Position numbers and translations under genes: made by a program. A stretch of 64,000 bases of DNA from assembly GCA_026394055.1 (NCBI GenBank), contig JAPKYZ010000051.1, positions 16,356 to 80,355 of the forward strand, read 5' to 3'. Positions 6,640 to 38,912 of this stretch are shown here, piece by piece; position 1 is the stretch's first letter; each line of letters starts with the position of its first letter. The notes beneath the pieces are model-generated. The model searched no databases. It was not told the DNA's origin and was given only the letters and a program-made list of their open reading frames with translations. This DNA is from Acidobacteriota bacterium. GTDB taxonomy: Bacteria; Acidobacteriota; Terriglobia; Bryobacterales; Bryobacteraceae.

Positions 6640-7380
6640 CCTTTTCAGTCTGTCACACTCTGCGCTAAGCTTCTGGAAATGTTCCCAGGCGGGTGGGGCC
6701 CCTTCCCGCTCTCCATTCTTCGTCAGACAGAGCGCGCCTGAACCGCAGACATCGAGCTACGTCCAGGAGCAGCCAGCCGGTTGGACCCGAAGCGTCCGCA
6801 TATGTTGGGACACTGTGTCACGATGCCACACAAGTTGGGCGGCCAGACCCAGCGTAGTTTGCTCCAAGGCGCACAAGTGCCCTGGAATGAGTGATCGACA
6901 GCCGTTTGCATGGTTGGCACGCAGCGTGCAATGCTAAGAAGCGAATTGATGGAGTCACTCTAAAACCTGCCCTCTGTTGCAACAGGCAGGCGGTGATGGG
7001 CGAACGGGGCAGTCAACGTCTCGTGCTCGTGGGAGCGGTGGCAGTTTTTAAAACCGTTCGCACCTAACCGCAGGCAAGTTGCAATAGAGGGGTTTTTTTG
7101 TCGCTCATCCGTTCCAAGGCTAGCAGGAGCAACAATGGCAAGACCTTGCATCAGCTTTGAATAGAATTCAGCTTGCCCAGGGCTGCGAGAGCGCTGGCTG
7201 ACGCGAGGGATGGTTGAAGGTAGCTTGGACGCGGGCCTTCGGTCACGATTTGCGCGCAGCGACGTCCGGTCCTAGAGCCCTTACGCGGGCGAACCGCATC
7301 GGAGCAGGTCCACAAAAACCCACCAACCCTACTCCGATGCGGTGTTTGCACCCGCCCAGTGCCACCCCAAACCGTCCTCT

Positions 7381-7713
7381 CTACCAAGCAAGTGTGCCCG
7401 TGCGAGGCCGTTCATCGGGATGCGGCAAATAAACAGTGTGACACTTTTCGCAGCGGTATAGTTCGGCACCGTGCTGGGCGATCAGCTCGGGCGAGGCGTG
7501 GAACCAGCGCTTTAGGTGTCCGGCGCAAAGCTTGCCCTTGGCATCGGTCTCCGAACAGGCCCGCATCCGGGGCGTCCGTTGCTTGATCTTGATCAACTCG
7601 TGATCGGACCGGGTAGACTCTGAAACTCCAACTTCGGCTGGCTCTGACATGGGTGTTTGGGTAAGCAACTTTTCTCCCGGGCGGCCGGTCGGCCACCCGA
7701 GAATCTCCTCCAC
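7381..7713 (-). CDS. hypothetical small protein with CxxH...CxxCH cysteine motif
   Basis: 110-aa ORF, probable start at internal 'MSEPAEV'. 'CAGH' and 'CEKCH' motifs. Sits alone in a 1.37-kb non-coding stretch. Weak call. Confidence 0.2.
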   Translation of the reverse strand: MEEILGWPTGRPGEKLLTQTPMSEPAEVGVSESTRSDHELIKIKQRTPRMRACSETDAKGKLCAGHLKRWFHASPELIAQHGAELYRCEKCHTVYLPHPDERPRTGTLAW

Positions 7714-14122: not shown

Positions 14123-15250
14123 TTAGGCCACCTGCAGCACTTTCACCTTGCGGCCGACATGCACCGTGTGGTCACCGGGTTCGAGCGCGTGCGTCGGGTT
14201 GCGGACCACTTCCTCGCCCACCTTCACCGCCCCTTGCTTGATCAACCCATCAGCCTTTGACACGGAGGCAGCCATGCCGCCTTGGACAATGGCGCGGTTC
14301 AGACGCCGGTCCGTCACGGCGACGGTCTCCGCAAAATCAGCATCCGCATCGCCGTGGAAATCCGCGATGATGCGCTTGATCAGCTCTTCCTTCGCCGCCC
14401 GCGGGTCGGACTTGCGCGCCTCGATTTGCGGCAGCGATTCGTCGGTCAGCAGCTCCCAGTAGCGCCACATCAGGTCATCGGAGATGTTGATCAGCTTCTG
14501 CCGCATCGCGGCCGGGGCTTCCGTGATGCCGACGTAATTACCCTTGGACTTCGACATCTTCTCGACACCGTCCAGGCCTTCGAGCAGCGGCGTCGTCGCC
14601 ACGATCTGCGGCAACTGGCCGTAGTCACGCTGGATCTCGCGGCCCACCAGCAGGTTGAATTTTTGGTCAGACCCGCCCAGCTCTACATCGCACTTCAGGC
14701 AGACCGAATCGTAGGCCTGCGCCAGCGGGTACAGCAGCTCATGCACCGAAATTGGGATGCCGCCCTGGAAGCGCTTGGTGAAGTCATCGCGTTCGAGCAG
14801 CCGGGCAACCGTGTACTTGGACGCCAGACGCACCACATCGGCAAAGCCCAGCTGGTCGAACCATTCGCTGTTGAACCGGATCTCGGTCTTGGCCGGGTCG
14901 AGAATCTTGAACACCTGAGACTTGTAGGTCTCAGCGTTCTTGTCGATGTCCTCACGCGTCAGCGGCGGACGGGTGGTGTTGCGGCCGGTGGGGTCACCAA
15001 TCAGGCCGGTGACGTCGCCGATCAGGAAGATGACAGTGTGGCCCAGGTCCTGGAAGTGCTTCATCTTGCGCAGCAGGACGGTGTGGCCCAGGTGGAGGTC
15101 GGGCGCGGTCGGGTCAAAGCCGGCCTTGACGCGCAGCGGGCGGCCTTCGGCAGCCGCCGATTCCAGACGGGTGCGCAGGTCCTCTTCGCGGATGATCTCC
15201 GCAAAGCCTTTGCGCAGGTAAGCGAGTTGTTCGTCGATCGAGAGAGCCAA
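14123..15250 (-). CDS. tyrS: tyrosine--tRNA ligase
   Basis: HIGH motif 'PDLHLGHTV', 'KMSKS' motif, C-terminal S4 domain. Confidence 0.9.
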
Positions 15251-15282
15251 GCCTCTAGTTTAGCGGAGCTTGCCGGAATCGA

Positions 15283-31100: not shown

Positions 31101-32900
31101 TTGGGTGTGGCCTCCTTTCTGCTGGTCTTGGCGGCGGGCACGCTCGCCTTTTTCTTCCTCCTCATCTTCCTGTTCGGACTGGTGATCATCCGGGAAAACC
31201 AAGTGGGAGTGGTAATTAAACGCTTCTCCTGGAGCGGCAAGAAGCTTCCCGAAGGCCGGGTAATCGCGCTTGAAGAAGAGCCGGGCTATCAGGCCCGCAC
31301 GCTGGGCCCGGGCTTTCATCTTTGGTACTTCCCGGTGATGTACAAGATCGAGAAGTACCCGATCACCGTCATCGCGCCCGGCAAGATCGGCCTGGTGATC
31401 GCCAACGACGGCAATCCCCCGCCCGTCAACCGCGTCCTGTGCGAAGCGGTGGAGTGCGACAACTTCCAGAACGCCGAAAAGTTCTTGCGCCACGGGGGAC
31501 AAAAAGGCCGCCAGAGCGCGGTGTTGACCGCCGGCTACTACCGCATCAACCCGGTGCTGTTCAAAGTGGTTCCGGATGTCCCCATCACCAAGATTGATTC
31601 GAACAAGATCGGCATCATCACCGTGCTGGACGGTGCGCCGATGCCGGTGGGACAGATGGCCGCCCAAGTGATCGCGGGTGGTGAGAGCTTCCAGAACCCC
31701 GATGCCTTCATCCGCAACGGCGGCTGCCGCGGCCTGCAGGAGCAGATCATGCTGGCCGGCAGCTACAACATCAACCCCTGGTTTTCCGAGATCGAAGAGG
31801 CCGACCTGGTGGAAGTGCCGATCGGCTATGTCGGCGTCGTGGTGAGCTTTGTCGGCGAAGACTTCAAGGACATCTCGGGCGAACAGTTCACGCACGGCAA
31901 CATCGTCCGCAAGGGCGGCAAAGGCGTCTGGGATGAACCGCTCTACCCCGGCAAGCACGCGCTGAACACCCGGATCATGAAAGTGGAGCTCGTGCCCACC
32001 ACCAACATCGTCCTCAACTGGGCTTCCACGCGCACCGAGTCACACAAGCTGGACGAGAAGCTGTCGACAATCTCCGTGCGCTCGAAAGACGGCTTCACCT
32101 TCAACCTGGACGTCTCCCAGATCATCAACATCGGTGCCACCAAGGCACCTTGGGTGATCTCCCGCGTGGGCAGCGTGCGCAATCTGGTGAACCAGGTGCT
32201 GGAGCCGATCATCGGCAACTATTTCCGCAACGGTGCCCAGAACTACACCGTGCTCGACTTCCTATCGAACCGCAGCGAGCGGCAGACCGAGGCCCGCACC
32301 CACATCACCGATGCCATCCGTGAATACGACGTCCAGAGCGTCGACACGCTGATCGGTGACATCGTGCCGCCGGAGCAGTTGATGCTGACGCTCACCACGC
32401 GCAAGATCGCCGAGGAGCAGCAAAAGACGTTCCAGACCGAAGAGCAGACCCAGCGCACGCGCCAGGAACTGGAGCGGCAGAAAGCGCTGGCGGACAAACA
32501 GAAAGAGATCGTCAACTCCGAACAAGACGTCCGCATCGCCGAAATGCGCGCCAAGTCCGCCGTCGAGCAAGCCCAGGGCGAATCGTTGGTGACGTCCCGG
32601 CGGGCCGAAGGCGAAGCCATCGCCAAACGCCGCGTCGGTGAGGCGGAGGCCGAAGTGGTCTCGATCAAGGGCCGCAACGAAGCCGAAGCGATCCGGGCGA
32701 TCGGGCAAGCCAAGGCCGATGCCTACAAGCTAGGCGTGGAAGCAATGGGCGGCAACTTCTCCCTGCTCCAGATCTTCACCATCCTGGCCGAAAAAGGCAT
32801 CCGGCTCACTCCCGACGTCATGGTCTCCGGCGGCAGCAACGGAGGCAATGCCTCCGAGGCGATGCTGGCCATGTTGTTGCGTGAGGCGATGAAGAAGTAG
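31101..32900 (+). CDS. SPFH/band-7 (flotillin-like) membrane protein
   Basis: N-terminal TM. SPFH domain. Long Glu/Ala/Gln-rich coiled coil ('EAEAEVVSIKGRNEAEAIRAIGQAKADA'). Confidence 0.75.
   Translation: MGVASFLLVLAAGTLAFFFLLIFLFGLVIIRENQVGVVIKRFSWSGKKLPEGRVIALEEEPGYQARTLGPGFHLWYFPVMYKIEKYPITVIAPGKIGLVIANDGNPPPVNRVLCEAVECDNFQNAEKFLRHGGQKGRQSAVLTAGYYRINPVLFKVVPDVPITKIDSNKIGIITVLDGAPMPVGQMAAQVIAGGESFQNPDAFIRNGGCRGLQEQIMLAGSYNINPWFSEIEEADLVEVPIGYVGVVVSFVGEDFKDISGEQFTHGNIVRKGGKGVWDEPLYPGKHALNTRIMKVELVPTTNIVLNWASTRTESHKLDEKLSTISVRSKDGFTFNLDVSQIINIGATKAPWVISRVGSVRNLVNQVLEPIIGNYFRNGAQNYTVLDFLSNRSERQTEARTHITDAIREYDVQSVDTLIGDIVPPEQLMLTLTTRKIAEEQQKTFQTEEQTQRTRQELERQKALADKQKEIVNSEQDVRIAEMRAKSAVEQAQGESLVTSRRAEGEAIAKRRVGEAEAEVVSIKGRNEAEAIRAIGQAKADAYKLGVEAMGGNFSLLQIFTILAEKGIRLTPDVMVSGGSNGGNASEAMLAMLLREAMKK
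32877..32900 (+). repeat. 24-bp direct repeat copy 1 (3' end of flotillin gene, 'ttgcgtgaggcgatgaagaagtag')
   Basis: Identical to 34023..34046 on direct reading of the sequence. Confidence 0.9.
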
Positions 32901-32920: not shown

Positions 32921-33196
32921 ATGGCCTCTCACGACCAGCGGTCAAGCGGGCAGACCAACCCGGGTTCACTATCTTTGACGCCTGAGCCGGCTGTCGTTGC
33001 GACTGCGCCGGAACTGGTTGACCTCTACCGGACCGCTTTTCGGCTTTACGGGACTTCCGCCCTCTGGAATCGGCGTGAGTTTACCGACCCCGCTCCGCAA
33101 GATGTCCTGGCCATCACCCAAGCGCTCAGGACGCACGGCGGGATGGACGGCCGGCGGCTAGCTGAAAAGATTGAACGCATCTGCCGTGCCACTTAG
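32921..33196 (+). CDS. hypothetical small protein, putative partner of the downstream nucleotidyltransferase
   Basis: 91-aa ORF overlapping the next gene by 26 bp. No recognisable family. Start uncertain. Confidence 0.35.
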   Translation: MASHDQRSSGQTNPGSLSLTPEPAVVATAPELVDLYRTAFRLYGTSALWNRREFTDPAPQDVLAITQALRTHGGMDGRRLAEKIERICRAT

Positions 33197-34001
33197 TCAG
33201 TTTCAGTCGCGAGTGCTGGGGATATTGGCGGCGGGCCGGACGCCGGAAAGCTTCATCGCCGGCGGTATCGCCATCAACCGTGAGGGACCGCGCTATTCGC
33301 GGGCTATCGATATCTTCCAGGATTCCGAGGAGGTCTTGGCGGCGGCAGCGGAAGCTGACCAGCGCCTGCTGACAGATGCCGGAATGCGCGTCAACTGGCG
33401 AAGCAACCGCACGGGCCACCGGTCGGCGATCGTTTCAGCGGATACAGACTCGATGCGCCTCGAGTGGGTGCATGATAGCGCCTTCCGATTCTTTCCCGCC
33501 CAGCCTGATGCGCAGTTCGGCTATGTGCTCCACCCTGTCGATTTGGCGGCCAACAAGGTCTCGGCAGCGGCCGACCGGCGTGAGGCTCGGGACATTGTTG
33601 ACCTAGTGACCATTCACGAAAACATCCTGCCTCTTGGGGCGGCGATCTGCGCCGCGGTTGGCCGGTTTCCTGGTCAATCGCCCGAGGAGATGTTGGCCGA
33701 GATCCGCCGCCACGCGCGCCTGTCGGCCGAAGAGATCGAGAGCCTGGCCATGGATGGCCCCCTGGACGTGAAGGCCTTCACGGCGCGGGTCCGCGCGATG
33801 CTCGACCACGCGGATGTGTTCATCCGTCATCTACCGAGCGAAGCGGTTGGGGTGGTCTTCTTAAGGGCCGGGAGGTGGGAGCAACCGGATCTCGACCGGC
33901 TGGACGAGTATGATCGCCGCCCCGGAAGCCGGGGTGGTATCTGGCCTTCATCGAGCGAAATCAACCGCGCCATGCTCGGCCGGTATTCCAGCGAACCCTA
34001 A
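33171..34001 (+). CDS. nucleotidyltransferase, AbiEii/DUF1814-like (putative type IV TA / abortive-infection toxin)
   Basis: Pol-beta-type NTase motif 'FIAGGIAINREGPRYSRAIDIF' (GG...RxSxDID), as in AbiEii-family proteins. About 276 aa. Confidence 0.5.
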   Translation: MNASAVPLSQFQSRVLGILAAGRTPESFIAGGIAINREGPRYSRAIDIFQDSEEVLAAAAEADQRLLTDAGMRVNWRSNRTGHRSAIVSADTDSMRLEWVHDSAFRFFPAQPDAQFGYVLHPVDLAANKVSAAADRREARDIVDLVTIHENILPLGAAICAAVGRFPGQSPEEMLAEIRRHARLSAEEIESLAMDGPLDVKAFTARVRAMLDHADVFIRHLPSEAVGVVFLRAGRWEQPDLDRLDEYDRRPGSRGGIWPSSSEINRAMLGRYSSEP

Positions 34002-34076: not shown

Positions 34077-36689
34077 ATGCGGCTGATGCTTGGATTAGCG
34101 TTGCTGCTGCCCGCGATGGCGCAGCAGACGATGGATGCGGACTTTGCGAAGTCGGTGAAAGAGTTCACCACCAAACCGGAATTTATGAGTCCGCTGGTGG
34201 ACCATCTGCCCAAGGTCCCCGGCATTCCGACACCCAAAGACTTTCTGGGCTATCACGTCGGCACGCCGAAGAAGCTGACGCGCTATGCGGACATTGTGAA
34301 GTACCTCCGGGCGCTCGAAAAAGCGTCGAAGCGCATCAAGGTGTTTAGCGCCGGGCAGACCGACGAAGGCCGCGAGATGATTGCCGGCATGGTGGGTGAT
34401 GAGGCCACTATCGCGAGTCTTGAAACCTACCGCGGCTATCTGGCCCAACTGGCGGACCCGCGCAAGACCACCGACGCGGCGGCCGTCATCGCCAAAGCCA
34501 AGCCGATCTATCAGCTGACCGGCGGCCTCCACGCCAGCGAAACGGGCTCGCCCGAAATGCTGATGGAGCTGGCCTATCGCCTGGTGGCGGAAGAAGGCGC
34601 GCTCTACAGCCAGATCCGGCAGAACCTGATTGTGTCCATCGTCCCGGCGCTCGAACCCGATGGGCAGGAGCGTTACACCGACTGGTATTACCGCCACAAG
34701 ATCAACGACACCTCCGAAGATGACGCCCTGCCCGGACCACCCTATTGGGGCAAGTACGTCCTGCACGACAACAACCGCGACATGCACTATTCGCAGATCG
34801 TGATGCGCAACTGGCTGAAGTTCTACTTGCAGTGGAAAGCGCCCATCGTGCATGACCTGCATGAAAGCGTGCCGGTCCTCTACACCTTCTCCGGCCAGCC
34901 GCCGCACAACCCCAACCTGGACCCGATCCTCTACGCTGAGCTCCCCTGGTTCGCCAACTATGAGATGACCAAGATGATCGGCTACGGCATGCCCGGCGTC
35001 TGGACACACGCTTTTGTCGACATGTGGAGCGTGGGCTATCTGGGCTTTATGGCCTCCAACCACAACGGCATGCTCCGCATGTATGAGACCTACGGCAACG
35101 GCGGCGCCAACACCATGAAGCGCAAAGTCCAGTCGAGCGAGAATGACCGCTTCGGCGCGGCCAACCGCCAGTGGTACCGCCCCTTCCCGGCCTACAAGGA
35201 CGTTGAATGGTCCCTGCGCAACAACACGAATTACATGCAGACCGGCGTGCTGTCGGCGCTGGAACTGGCTTCGGCCAACTCGAAGACGATCCTCGACAAC
35301 TTCTACCGCAAGTCCTTCAACGCCGTCGAAGCCGGTAAGAAGGAAGCGCCCTATGGCTGGAGCATCCCGGCCGGACAGCGCGACCAGACGCGCGTCGCAC
35401 TGTTGATCAACACACTGCGCCTGCAAGGCATTGAGGTCAGCACCAAGGCCGACGGCACCTTCCTCATCCGCCGCGATCAGCCCTATGGACGCCTGGCGAA
35501 GAGCCTGCTCGAAAAGCAGGTCTACCCGGACCCCAGCCTCCGCACCTACGACGACACCGGCTGGACCATGGGCACACAGTTCCAGGTGGACGTGAAGGAA
35601 GTGAACGAGAAGGGCCAACTGGACGTGCCGACGCAGCCCGTCAACACCTACGACCCGCGCGGCTCCGTCACGGGCCAGGGGCAGCATCTGGTGGTGCTGC
35701 ACAATGGCGCGCATTCGATGATCACGCTGCGCGCGCGGTTGAAGTCCGCCAAGTTTGAAGCGCTCGAAAAGACGTGGGGCGACCTGCCCGCGGGCAGCCT
35801 CATCACGGCCAACACGGCGGCGGCGCGCGAACAGGTCGAGAAGTTAGGCTTGGTGGCGAAGGTGATGCCGGAGCTGCCAGACGTGCCGCGCCATGCGGTC
35901 GACCTGCCGCGGCTGGCTGTTTATTCCACCTGGGGCTCAACGCAGGAAGTGGGTTGGGTGCGCCATGCGCTCGACAGCTTTGAAGTGCCCTACGACCTGA
36001 TTTTCAAGGAGCGCGTGAAGAAGGGCAATCTGCGCGGCGACTACGACGTCGTGCTGATCCCCAACCAACGCGGCGGCTCGGCGAAAGGCATCGTGTTCGA
36101 CATCGATTGCAAGGGCCGCTCCATGGCCTACACCAAGACGGCCGACTTCAAGAGCCTGGGCATGTACGGCGAAACCGAAGAGATGTGCGGCGGCATGGGC
36201 CTGGAAGGCGTGGTCGAATTCGAGAAGTTCGTCACCGGCGGCGGCGTCATGATCACGCTCGCTGGAGCCAGCACGCTGCCCGCTGAGTTCGGCCTCGTGC
36301 GCCGTGTCGAAGCCAGTCGTCCGGTGGGGACTTTCTACGCCCCGGGTCCGATTCTCGATGCCGAAATCGAAAAGCCTTCGCACCCCATGTTCTACGGCTA
36401 CACGGCCAAAACGGTGGCCATCCGCTACGCCAACGGGCCGCTGCTCTACGCCTCCGAGCAGGATCGCCAAAAGTGGTCCCTGCTGAAGTACCCCTTCACC
36501 GAAAAGGGAATCCTCAGCGGCCACATCCAAGGCATTGGTCAATTGAAAGACCACCCCGCCGTAATGGACGTCCCTTCCGGTAAGGGCCGGGTGGTCATGT
36601 TCGCCACGAACCCCTGCTATCGCTGGCAGACCCATAGTGAGTTCGCGATGCTGTTCAACTCACTGCTACATTTTGATGATGTGAAGTAG
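34077..36689 (+). CDS. M14-family zinc carboxypeptidase-like secreted protein
   Basis: 870 aa. Signal peptide. M14-like zinc-binding region '[21 protein letters not shown]'. Confidence 0.65.
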
Positions 36690-36693
36690 GATT

Positions 36694-37926
36694 ATGGAAC
36701 GGAAAAAGAAGGTTGGCCCACCCCGCATTGAGACGCTACGCGTCAAAAACTATCGCTCATTAAAGGACATCGAATTCAGGGACCTCACGCCCTTCACTGT
36801 GCTGCTTGGCCCGAATGGCAGTGGGAAGTCGACGACTTTCGATGTGTTGAATTTTCTGTCCGAGTGCTTTCGCTTCGGGCTTCGTCATGCCTGGGATCGC
36901 CGGGGACGCTCTAGAGAGTTAAAGACGAGAGGTCAATCTGGCCCGATTCTCATCGAACTTAAGTACCGCGAGCGCCCGGAAGCACCAATCATCACATACC
37001 ACCTAGCGATTGATGAGGGCGAACGGGGCGGACCAGTAGTCGCCGAAGAATGGCTGCAATGGCGGCGAGGCAGTAAGGGGCAACCATTCCGGTTCTTGGA
37101 TTATCGCGCCGGCAAAGGACGAGCCGTCAGCGGTGAGATGCCCGATGACCAGGATCAACGGGACGACGTACCGCTGAAGTCAGCGGACTTGATCGCGGTC
37201 AACGCCCTCGGCCAGTTTGAGAATCATCCGCGCGTTGCTGCTTTGAGAGAATTCATCACCGATTGGTACGTATCGTATCTATCGATAGAAGATACACGCG
37301 GGCAGCCCGAGGCGGGTCCACAGGACCGCCTGAGCAAGAGCGGCGATAACCTCGCAAACGTAATTCAGTACCTTAGGGAACGCTATCCGAAAGAGTTGGA
37401 GGCTATTTTTGAGATCCTCCGACGCCGTATCCCGAGGCTCGAAAGCGTTATTGCAGTACCTACTGACGATGGACGGCTGCTGTTGCAGATCAAGGACGCT
37501 CCCTTTGATCGGCCGATCCTCTCTCGTTTTGCATCTGACGGGACGTTGAAAATGTTGGCCTACCTAGTTGTTTTGCATGATCCTGAACCACCGCAATTCG
37601 TTGGGATCGAGGAACCGGAGAACTTTCTTCATCCGCGACTCCTACCGGGGCTGAGCGAAGAATGTAGGAGCGCGACCGAGCATTCACAATTATTGGTCAC
37701 GACACATTCACCATTTTTCTTGAATAGCGCCAAGCCTAACGAGGTTCGAATTCTCTATCGAAACGAACATGGTTTCACCGAAACGAGACGCGCGGACGAG
37801 GTTCCGGGTATCACTCAGTTTGTGGATGCGGGAGCCACTATGGGCCACCTTTGGCTGGAAGGCAGATTGGGAGCCGGGGATCCGCTGGTGAACTCGGGGG
37901 TTCCGTTGGAGGGACGCCGCCGATGA
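36694..37926 (+). CDS. ABC-type (AAA_21/OLD-like) ATPase, putative anti-phage AbiLi-like component
   Basis: Walker A 'GPNGSGKST'. Walker B/D-loop '[13 protein letters not shown]'. H-loop '[10 protein letters not shown]'. N-terminal '[12 protein letters not shown]' typical of OLD/Gabija-class ABC ATPases. Confidence 0.75.
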
Positions 37927-38534
37927 AGGCCAGCCATCTGCATGTCATTGTTGAGGACCAGTCCACGGAAGCCGCGCTCCGTGTATTGCTGCCCAAGATT
38001 CTTCGACAAGACCTTACGTTTGAGATATTTCCGCACCAATGTAAGCAAGATCTGTTGAAACATCTCCCGAACCGCTTTCGGGGCTACAAGCAATGGCTGC
38101 CGGACGACTGGCGGATTATTGTGCTCTGCGATCTTGACAATGACGACTGCAAACAACTCAAGGATCGGCTCGAATCGTTTGCCATGCAGGCGAGGTTAAT
38201 GACCAAGCGATCTAGCAGTCGCGGGAGCTATCAAGTTGTCACGCGGCTTGCTATCGAAGAATTGGAAGCCTGGTTTTTTGGCGATTGGAATGCGGTTTGT
38301 GCCGCATACCCCAAAGTGGATCCCAACCTTGGAGCAAAACAGGGTTACCGCGATTCCGATTCCATTGCCGGCGGTACTTGGGAAGCGCTTGAGAGAGCGC
38401 TAAAGAATGGAGGATACTTCCGAACGGGACTTAGAAAGATCGAAGCCGCGCGGGCCATCTCTGACCAAATGGATCCATTGCGCAATAAGTCCCAGAGCTT
38501 CGATGCCTTTCGGAAGGCCGTCGGGGATCTATAG
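37923..38534 (+). CDS. DUF4276-like Toprim-domain protein (putative nuclease partner of the ATPase)
   Basis: ATGA overlap with the ATPase stop. Toprim catalytic Glu '[10 protein letters not shown]' and DxD motif '[12 protein letters not shown]'. Confidence 0.65.
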
Positions 38535-38536
38535 AA

Positions 38537-38899
38537 CTATTGCGGGACGGGACGCCCCATCGACTTGTAGATGCTCTCGATCGTGTCGATGTTGGCCTTG
38601 GCCTTTTTGTTCTCGCCGTCGTACTTCAGCGCGGCGCGGAATTCGCGGAGGGCGGCCGGGTATTTGCGCATGGGGGGCAACGCGTCGTTGTACATCAGGC
38701 TGTTGCCGTTGGCGACGTGGGCGTCCGCGAGCACCGTCTTCACGGCGGCGGATTTCGATTTGGCGTAATCCTCTTCCAGCAGTTTGATCGCTTCGTCGAA
38801 CTTCTTTTCCTTCATCAGCGCCTTGGCTTTGGCGGTGACGTCTTCGGCCAGCAGAGAAACGGCCAGGCAGATTGTCGAGATCAGTCGGGTGACACGCAT
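38537..38899 (-). CDS. hypothetical small secreted TPR-like protein
   Basis: 120-aa ORF with signal peptide. Convergent with the DUF4276 gene (2-bp gap). Confidence 0.45.
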   Translation of the reverse strand: MRVTRLISTICLAVSLLAEDVTAKAKALMKEKKFDEAIKLLEEDYAKSKSAAVKTVLADAHVANGNSLMYNDALPPMRKYPAALREFRAALKYDGENKKAKANIDTIESIYKSMGRPVPQ

Positions 38900-38912
38900 A
38901 ATAAAAGATTAC

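Follow-up and report, generated by a model that had tools for sequence, protein, structure and literature searches.

Type HEC-01 (Hma-embedded candidate 01) was described as an ATPase encoded together with a TOPRIM protein, and its second component, HEC-01B, as TOPRIM-like with a metal site that is conserved on alignment to BpOLD (Payne et al., bioRxiv 10.1101/2024.01.29.577857). HEC-01 ranked among the twelve commonest types in one survey. DUF4276 proteins are classed as Toprim superfamily members, with Mad4 of the MADS system as a homologue (PMC12065111). In PARIS, a related ATPase-Toprim system, a hexamer of AriA senses the anti-restriction protein Ocr and releases AriB, which then cleaves tRNA-Lys (PMC11464382). 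We found a gene pair of this kind in the 64-kb stretch of DNA analysed here (in the following, the window), which originates from a metagenome-assembled genome (MAG) of the Bryobacteraceae (Acidobacteriota). The pair encodes an ABC ATPase and a DUF4276 protein and is inserted between the gene of an M14 carboxypeptidase and a convergent gene for a TPR protein. Judged by its sequence, it belongs to HEC-01, a candidate anti-phage type already catalogued in PADLOC, and forms a split module of the OLD-like kind with an ABC ATPase and a DUF4276/Toprim protein. We consider it likely that the pair as a whole represents a horizontally acquired HEC-01 cassette, in which the ATPase holds a Toprim nuclease that aborts infection, which is expressed by read-through and which is unlinked to the M14 peptidase. 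The anti-phage role itself is a candidate function, assigned by analogy.

The class assignment is carried by matches of both proteins to the two HEC-01 profiles. The ATPase matches HEC-01A (PDLC04182) with an E-value of 1.1e-157 (523 bits; residues 10-396, profile positions 2-404 of 406), the second protein matches HEC-01B (PDLC04202) with 1.1e-84 (282 bits; residues 5-201, profile positions 2-198 of 204), and the genes follow one another directly in the same direction, with a 4-nt ATGA overlap. Pfam likewise identifies the ATPase as AAA_21 (1.6e-29) and AAA_15 (5e-17) and the second protein as DUF4276 (PF14103, 1.1e-26), at E-values well outside the range of chance matches. These searches bear out an earlier interpretation of the same DNA, made from the letters alone (the sequence-only reading), which had proposed that an ABC ATPase and a DUF4276/Toprim protein form a split OLD-like module here, as a candidate anti-phage system. 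The pair also shows the features of the broad OLD-like class: the ATPase combines Walker A, signature, Walker B/D-loop and H-loop motifs with a head fold of the SMC/Rad50 type, and the second protein combines an OLD-type Toprim fold with conserved Glu and DxD acidic residues. As modelled, the ATPase head is similar to those of SMC, Rad50, PtuA and AriA. As in the described HEC-01 type, the window pair consists of adjacent genes for an ABC ATPase and a small TOPRIM-like protein with conserved metal-binding acidic residues; unlike that type, it is placed outside any Hma, restriction-modification (R-M) or other defence locus, as a solitary and promoter-less copy behind a peptidase gene.

Other ATPase-Toprim systems were considered and rejected as a classification, since the second protein matches none of AbiL, PARIS or MADS in Pfam, PADLOC or NCBIfam at permissive thresholds. 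The sequence-only reading had named the AbiL class, and this part of it did not hold. AbiL and Rlo share with the window pair the split arrangement of an ABC ATPase and a small Toprim-superfamily protein, AbiL is grouped in the literature with the ATPase-TOPRIM systems, and type I R-M operons harbour both the Rlo genes (R-linked open reading frame, ORF) and relatives of the window pair. However, the second protein belongs to DUF4276 and matched no RloB, AbiLii, DUF4435/AriB, mad4 or Toprim_Old model of Pfam or PADLOC even at E <= 10, AbiLii belonging, as we take it, to the RloB family (PF13707). The match of the ATPase to AbiLi (PDLC02335) is weak and partial (5.8e-25, profile positions 52-283 of 326) and lies far under that to HEC-01A. 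The Mad3-Mad4 proteins of MADS present the same pairing of an AAA_15/21-lineage ATPase with DUF4276, and MADS3 (NF047739) is the best named match of the ATPase in NCBIfam. Its 125.6 bits, however, fall below the curated cut-off of 420, so that the protein is not a Mad3 equivalog (PADLOC mad3: 6e-21), the second protein lacks a mad4 match, and no other MADS genes, such as the methyltransferase, occur nearby, where the neighbours are M14, TPR and cmk. PARIS likewise separates an ABC ATPase sensor from a Toprim nuclease effector and offers the best mechanistic template, but its effector AriB belongs to DUF4435 and is larger (about 35 kDa, compared with 23 kDa for the window protein), with no sequence-level match between the two, and the AriA matches of the window ATPase are limited to the generic AAA_21/AAA_15 profiles. 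The OLD nucleases (P2 Old, BpOLD, TsOLD) and GajA of Gabija are built from the same two modules, which are fused in one polypeptide there and divided over two genes here; sequence identity is 11-14%, and the window cassette has no GajB-like helicase partner. Neither a single-sequence nor a profile search of the PDB returned sequence relatives of the DUF4276 protein.

Conservation at the predicted catalytic positions is consistent with two intact proteins. Residue conservation was scored in alignments of 42 sequences for the ATPase and 42 homologues for the DUF4276 protein, and the resulting motifs are listed in Table 1 together with the coordinates of all features. They include the Walker A, Walker B/D-loop and H-loop motifs of the 410-aa ATPase and the Toprim Glu and DxD of the ATGA-overlapped 203-aa protein, all of which had been correctly recognised from the letters. 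The DUF4276 homologues share, besides the helical block given in the table, a second further invariant block, GGTWE. At 410 aa and with short inserts only, the ATPase has no SMC/Rad50 coiled coil. We also considered a degenerating copy and rejected this: the ratio of ATPase to DUF4276 identity of the window pair lies in the range of the family (rank 12 of 65), and the catalytic residues are all intact. A side observation concerns ATPase residues 195-218 (37276-37347), which are near-invariant in the 42 homologues, yet are modelled with a predicted local distance difference test score (pLDDT) below 50 in the monomer. This loop, which includes the probable Q-loop glutamine Gln204, is a candidate partner-binding or dimer-interface loop.

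The cassette fits between its neighbours with hardly any non-coding sequence. Only the four bases GATT separate the M14 stop codon TAG (36687-36689) from the ATG of the ATPase, and only AA stands between the DUF4276 stop codon TAG (38532-38534) and CTA, the stop codon of the convergent 120-aa ORF, in agreement with the 4-bp and 2-bp distances given in the sequence-only reading. That reading had placed the module at an M14-cmk junction, but the convergent neighbour is the TPR gene, and cmk starts only beyond it. It had also counted the M14 TAG as part of a Shine-Dalgarno sequence TAGGA. The AGGA, however, lies 2 nt from the ATPase ATG, which is too near for a typical Shine-Dalgarno site; most homologous cassettes carry GGAG or AAGGA 6-10 nt upstream of the ATPase start. 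The ATGA overlap implies translational coupling of the ATPase and DUF4276 genes. In the mechanical ORF list the DUF4276 frame reaches further 5', to a TTG at 37851; we prefer the ATG at 37923 because the homologues measure 201-209 aa and a 4-nt overlap is modal among them. An identical gene layout is present in the Logan assembly of run SRR20698650, which is possibly not independent of the reads behind the window.

Table 1. Positions of the HEC-01 cassette, its neighbours and its conserved motifs in the window
Feature	Position	Strand	Remarks
Inserted segment, 1847 nt	36690..38536	+	4 nt, two overlapping ORFs and 2 nt, from M14 stop to convergent TPR stop
HEC-01A-type ABC ATPase, 410 aa	36694..37926	+	Presumed sensor and regulator
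HEC-01B-type DUF4276 protein, 203 aa	37923..38534	+	Presumed nuclease effector
ATGA start/stop overlap of the ATPase and DUF4276 genes	37923..37926	+	Seen in the sequence; 4-nt overlap modal among homologous loci
Walker A, GPNGSGKST, ATPase residues 39-47	36808..36834	+	8 of 9 residues invariant, Pro40 nearly so, in 42 homologues
RGQPEAGP, probable Q-loop (Gln204)	37297..37320	+	R202 and Q204-P209 invariant; Q-loop assignment inferred
ABC signature-like SDGTLK, residues 281-286	37534..37551	+	Invariant in 42 homologues
Walker B and D-loop, FVGIEEPEN, residues 301-309	37597..37623	+	E306, E307, P308, E309, N310 invariant
H-loop, TTHSP, residues 336-340	37699..37713	+	Invariant in 42 homologues
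First Toprim motif, IVEDQSTE	37947..37970	+	V10, Glu11, S14, Glu16 invariant
Toprim DxD, DLDNDDC	38130..38150	+	Asp70, Asp72, Cys76 invariant; Asp74 at least 90% conserved
Family-specific invariant block	38256..38285	+	E113, L114, E115, W117, F119, G120, D121; helical region past the Toprim core
M14 carboxypeptidase gene, 870 aa	34077..36689		Upstream of cassette; Pfam Peptidase_M14 8e-14
Convergent TPR protein with signal peptide, 120 aa	38537..38899	-	
cmk	start 38913		

The cassette is horizontally acquired, to judge from a composition unlike that of its neighbours and from one relative with an empty site, and the sequence-only reading had come to the same view. Its GC content of 0.541 compares with a window mean of 0.624 (standard deviation 0.022 over equal-size windows) and makes it the lowest 1.85-kb stretch of the 64 kb; the drop had been anticipated by a hand count in the right direction, but its size, about 50% versus more than 60% in the flanks, was overstated. 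At third codon positions the GC content (GC3) is 0.589 in the ATPase gene and 0.583 in the DUF4276 gene, compared with 0.83 in M14, 0.84 in TPR, 0.78 in cmk and 0.85 in the aspartokinase gene. Homologous cassettes in three other hosts are likewise 6-12 GC points under their flanks. In a Solibacteraceae MAG (L004), whose M14 protein is 67% identical, the order is M14, TPR on the minus strand, cmk and aspartokinase without the pair, and the TAG of the orthologous M14 gene directly abuts TTA, the TPR stop codon. With these stops back to back, the window thus carries 1847 extra nucleotides, of which 1841 are coding. This evidence for an empty site comes from a single locus, because only L004 retains the M14-TPR-cmk-aspartokinase synteny.

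The pair is also missing from the examined loci of the two closest relatives, L001 and L003, whose M14 genes are 97-98% identical in protein and 93% in DNA. Their homology to the window stops at the M14 stop codon or within two bases of it and resumes in inverted orientation at window position 15276 or thereabouts and downward (2866-3785 in L001, 12613-13473 in L003), where a 234-aa secreted ORF without Pfam match is followed by tyrS (window 14123-15250). The insertion point of the cassette is therefore, to the base, also the site of an inversion or translocation breakpoint. We found no tRNA genes as integration sites at 28-44 kb of the window, and the flanks of 87 homologous cassettes share no non-coding ends of a mobile unit, only Shine-Dalgarno sites and, in R-M contexts, the 3' end of hsdS. 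A defence hotspot at the 3' end of M14 was considered and rejected, with ordinary M14 neighbours in L002 and L003 (an outer-membrane barrel, an AMP-binding enzyme, a PrmA-like methyltransferase, a secreted ORF and tyrS).

The position of the pair immediately behind M14 could be taken to mean that it is functionally tied to the secreted peptidase as an operon partner, which the gap of 4 nt between the genes and the lack of an upstream promoter-like site would fit. We regard this as extremely improbable. We found no M14, TPR or cmk gene in the vicinity of any of the 87 homologous cassettes, and none of 80 M14 orthologue loci has the pair adjacent to M14; the latter contain a single ATPase match (L036), with 25% identity and a position some 4 kb upstream of M14. 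Moreover, the composition of the M14 gene is native and that of the pair is foreign. Tight 5' coupling is a habit of the family rather than a sign of partnership, since at 15 of 72 homologous loci a co-directional and unrelated upstream ORF, in many cases hsdS, ends within 10 nt of the ATPase start. The close coupling that the sequence-only reading had found striking is thus real as a distance and not special to M14, and its doubt about a functional link agrees with these counts. On these comparative data, the M14 peptidase is a landing site, not a functional partner.

How the cassette is expressed can be approached from the same arrangement. No sigma-70-like promoter was detected in the 900 nt upstream of the cassette, in a scan that acidobacterial promoters may escape. 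The cassette shows no promoter-like site and could not accommodate a separate promoter, so its transcripts probably originate from M14 by read-through. This probably parallels the situation of relatives that lie behind hsdS in type I R-M operons.

The family to which the pair belongs is large, and its members are paired almost without exception. The ATPase search returned at least 8000 matches at E <= 1e-10, and the best matches listed, from Acidobacteriota, Myxococcota (Cystobacter, Myxococcus) and Planctomycetota, are 73-81% identical; the DUF4276 partners of those ATPases are 54-65% identical. For the DUF4276 protein, a search among 50%-identity clusters gave 1284 relatives with E <= 1e-3, of which 172 reached E <= 1e-30. 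The DUF4276 gene follows directly 3' of the ATPase gene in 73 of the 74 homologous loci with room downstream, mostly with a 4-nt overlap, and the pairing is obligate among close homologues. The order of conservation, with the ATPase above the nuclease, is the reverse of a common assumption for sensor-effector defence pairs. A deviating arrangement was seen in the closest metagenomic relatives (L100 and L102, ATPase 80% identical), in which the inferred DUF4276 start lies 57 nt past the ATPase stop and, in L102, the open DUF4276 frame comprises only 141 aa (7050-7475). Their sister contig L101 has the normal 4-nt overlap, and the arrangement could reflect nuclease pseudogenisation or an assembly error.

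The high identity of the ATPase across three phyla and the mostly housekeeping neighbours would suit a role in housekeeping DNA repair or end processing, with a Rad50/RecF-like ATPase and a Toprim nuclease acting on the cell's own DNA. We consider this very improbable. The distribution is patchy, with the pair absent from the examined loci of the relatives L001, L003 and L004, and the flanking genes differ in every lineage examined. The GC3 is foreign here, and the cassettes of three other hosts show lower GC than their flanks. The ATPase has no SMC/Rad50 coiled coil, and relatives are embedded in R-M operons.

Type I R-M operons are a recurrent defence-related context of the family. Among the loci whose flanks extend 3 kb or more to either side, 7 of 24 show an hsdM-hsdS-[pair]-hsdR arrangement, as do 13 of 56 among those with 1.5 kb or more upstream, and where it is present the ATPase gene starts 3-4 nt past the hsdS stop or overlaps it. 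On the Meiothermus taiwanensis plasmid pMtWR-220 the order is hsdM, DUF262, hsdS, DUF4433, macro domain, ATPase (68.6% identical), DUF4276 and hsdR, so that DUF262 and DarT/DarG-like genes precede the pair within the type I R-M operon. An IMG/VR contig (L096), one of two in that database with close relatives, has the R-M arrangement and a gene for a large serine recombinase on the same contig; on a further contig (P0021) with this arrangement, Fic, HipA_C and HIRAN genes share the operon. One homologous copy adjoins a Cas1 gene. Carriage by phages is rare (4 of 50,697 records, all below 33% identity).

The pair could thus be an accessory of type I R-M systems, a PrrC-like backup that is held latent by the cognate R-M system and fires when phage anti-restriction proteins disable it; the window copy would then be an orphan, either inactive or served by an R-M system encoded elsewhere. 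About a quarter of the close homologues between hsdS and hsdR speak for this view. High conservation of the ATPase would suit a conserved cellular partner, and PARIS, as a related ATPase-Toprim system, responds to an anti-restriction protein. On the other hand, hsd genes are missing at 17 of the 24 homologous loci with enough flank and within the 64-kb window, HEC-01 was defined from its embedding in Hma systems and not from R-M alone, and the positive phage test used the cloned candidate system by itself. We therefore rate an obligate R-M accessory as quite unlikely. A possible trace of an R-M origin was noticed at L088 (6736-7000), a solitary cassette among housekeeping genes, where the frame just upstream of the ATPase start reads LRLPAAERIVNE and resembles the HsdS C-terminus LRIRDAERIVQR of the R-M-embedded L096. 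This match is weak, without statistical support, and would favour the accessory view slightly; the frame may be a 3' remnant of hsdS, which hints that solitary copies derive from R-M-embedded ones.

For the candidate anti-phage function, we propose the following course of events, which rests on the analogy with PARIS AriA/AriB and P2 OLD. The ATPase would oligomerise and keep the activity of the Toprim nuclease in check. An infection cue, perhaps aberrant DNA or a protein of the phage (an anti-restriction factor, for example), would shift the ATP-dependent state of the ATPase. The nuclease would then be released or activated and cut nucleic acid, either tRNA or DNA, and the cutting would halt phage growth at the expense of the infected cell. 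From the R-M embedding, with about a quarter of the close relatives placed between hsdS and hsdR, and from the conserved ATPase, anti-restriction proteins or restriction failure are a reasonable first guess for the trigger. A cold-seep representative of HEC-01 shielded E. coli B from at least one of the phages T4, T5 and T7 (PMC12881386), which is in line with such a role.

Several points weigh against this reading. One HEC-01 representative gave no protection in E. coli against a subset of the BASEL collection and classic coliphages (bioRxiv 10.1101/2024.01.29.577857), and the positive report consists of a single spot assay of one representative, with no fold change in the text. The activity data for HEC-01, an abundant candidate defence type, are thus in conflict. 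The proposed trigger, like the substrate (tRNA or DNA) and the sequestration step, is drawn by analogy, expression from the M14 transcript without a promoter is what we infer from the layout, and the function of this copy and of its close homologues is a candidate one. Most homologous cassettes, that of the window included, have ordinary housekeeping neighbours, and the 64-kb window holds no restriction-modification (hsd) genes. Finally, mean pairwise identity across the family (L081-L177) is about 78% for the ATPase and about 61% for the DUF4276 nuclease, and a more conserved ATPase would be unusual if it tracks fast-evolving phage proteins.

Some of these points could equally describe a selfish addiction module of the toxin-antitoxin (TA) kind, in which the ATPase restrains a Toprim toxin and the pair persists since its loss is harmful, without meaningful protection from phages. 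Solitary, compositionally foreign cassettes amid housekeeping genes, with no other defence genes near, occur in several phyla; obligate pairing and translational coupling would fix the stoichiometry of the two proteins, and the unprotective HEC-01 representative would be expected. However, the repeated embedding in type I R-M operons beside DarTG and DUF262 is the pattern of a defence gene, one HEC-01 representative was protective, and plasmids, on which addiction modules thrive, seldom carry the family (10 of 72,556 records). We hold pure addiction to be unlikely, and it would not be mutually exclusive with abortive defence. An ATPase-held nuclease that aborts infection thus remains the reading we prefer.

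A more speculative extension, to which we give only a small chance, is that the cassette is a naked, promoter-less mobile unit native to the interiors of other operons, with an ATPase that maybe senses a conserved cellular state. If this were true, the unit would have moved with only 6 non-coding nucleotides to a place between two abutting convergent stop codons, which would represent an unrecognised, boundary-precise transfer of defence gene pairs between operons. The ATPase might also sense restriction failure, for example, instead of a phage protein, and with such a sensor the window copy could still act as a solitary sentinel on a housekeeping transcript.

In annotations, HEC-01 (ABC ATPase plus DUF4276/Toprim) is the appropriate label for the pair rather than AbiL, and no link to the M14 peptidase should be implied. 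The example is genuine but ordinary for its type, and the locus itself is unsurprising to a specialist. Its value lies in a clean natural example of a solitary HEC-01 copy with a defined insertion point between two abutting stops, and what further interest there is concerns the mechanism of HEC-01 and the placement of its relatives between hsdS and hsdR.

Beyond the cassette, the start codons of the divergent TPR (CAT, 38897-38899) and cmk (ATG, 38913) genes are 13 nt apart (38900-38912), which leaves no space for two ordinary promoters; the sole promoter-like match for cmk falls inside the TPR coding region. Upstream of M14 lies a second small, foreign-looking pair, a 91-aa ORF (32921-33196) that overlaps the gene of a 276-aa AbiEii-like nucleotidyltransferase (33171-34001; Pfam AbiEii 3.7e-6, PADLOC AbiEii 4.8e-5). 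The GC3 of this pair is 0.67-0.74, compared with a native value of about 0.83, and it is absent from L002, L003 and L004. Together with the HEC-01 cassette downstream, this pair places a candidate defence or TA islet on either side of M14. Further upstream (31101-32900), a gene of native GC3 encodes a membrane protein of 599 aa from the SPFH/Band_7 (flotillin-like) group (Pfam 7.8e-24). This gene occurs in L002 but not in L003 and L004, and the stretch 31101-32900 is therefore variable among the relatives.

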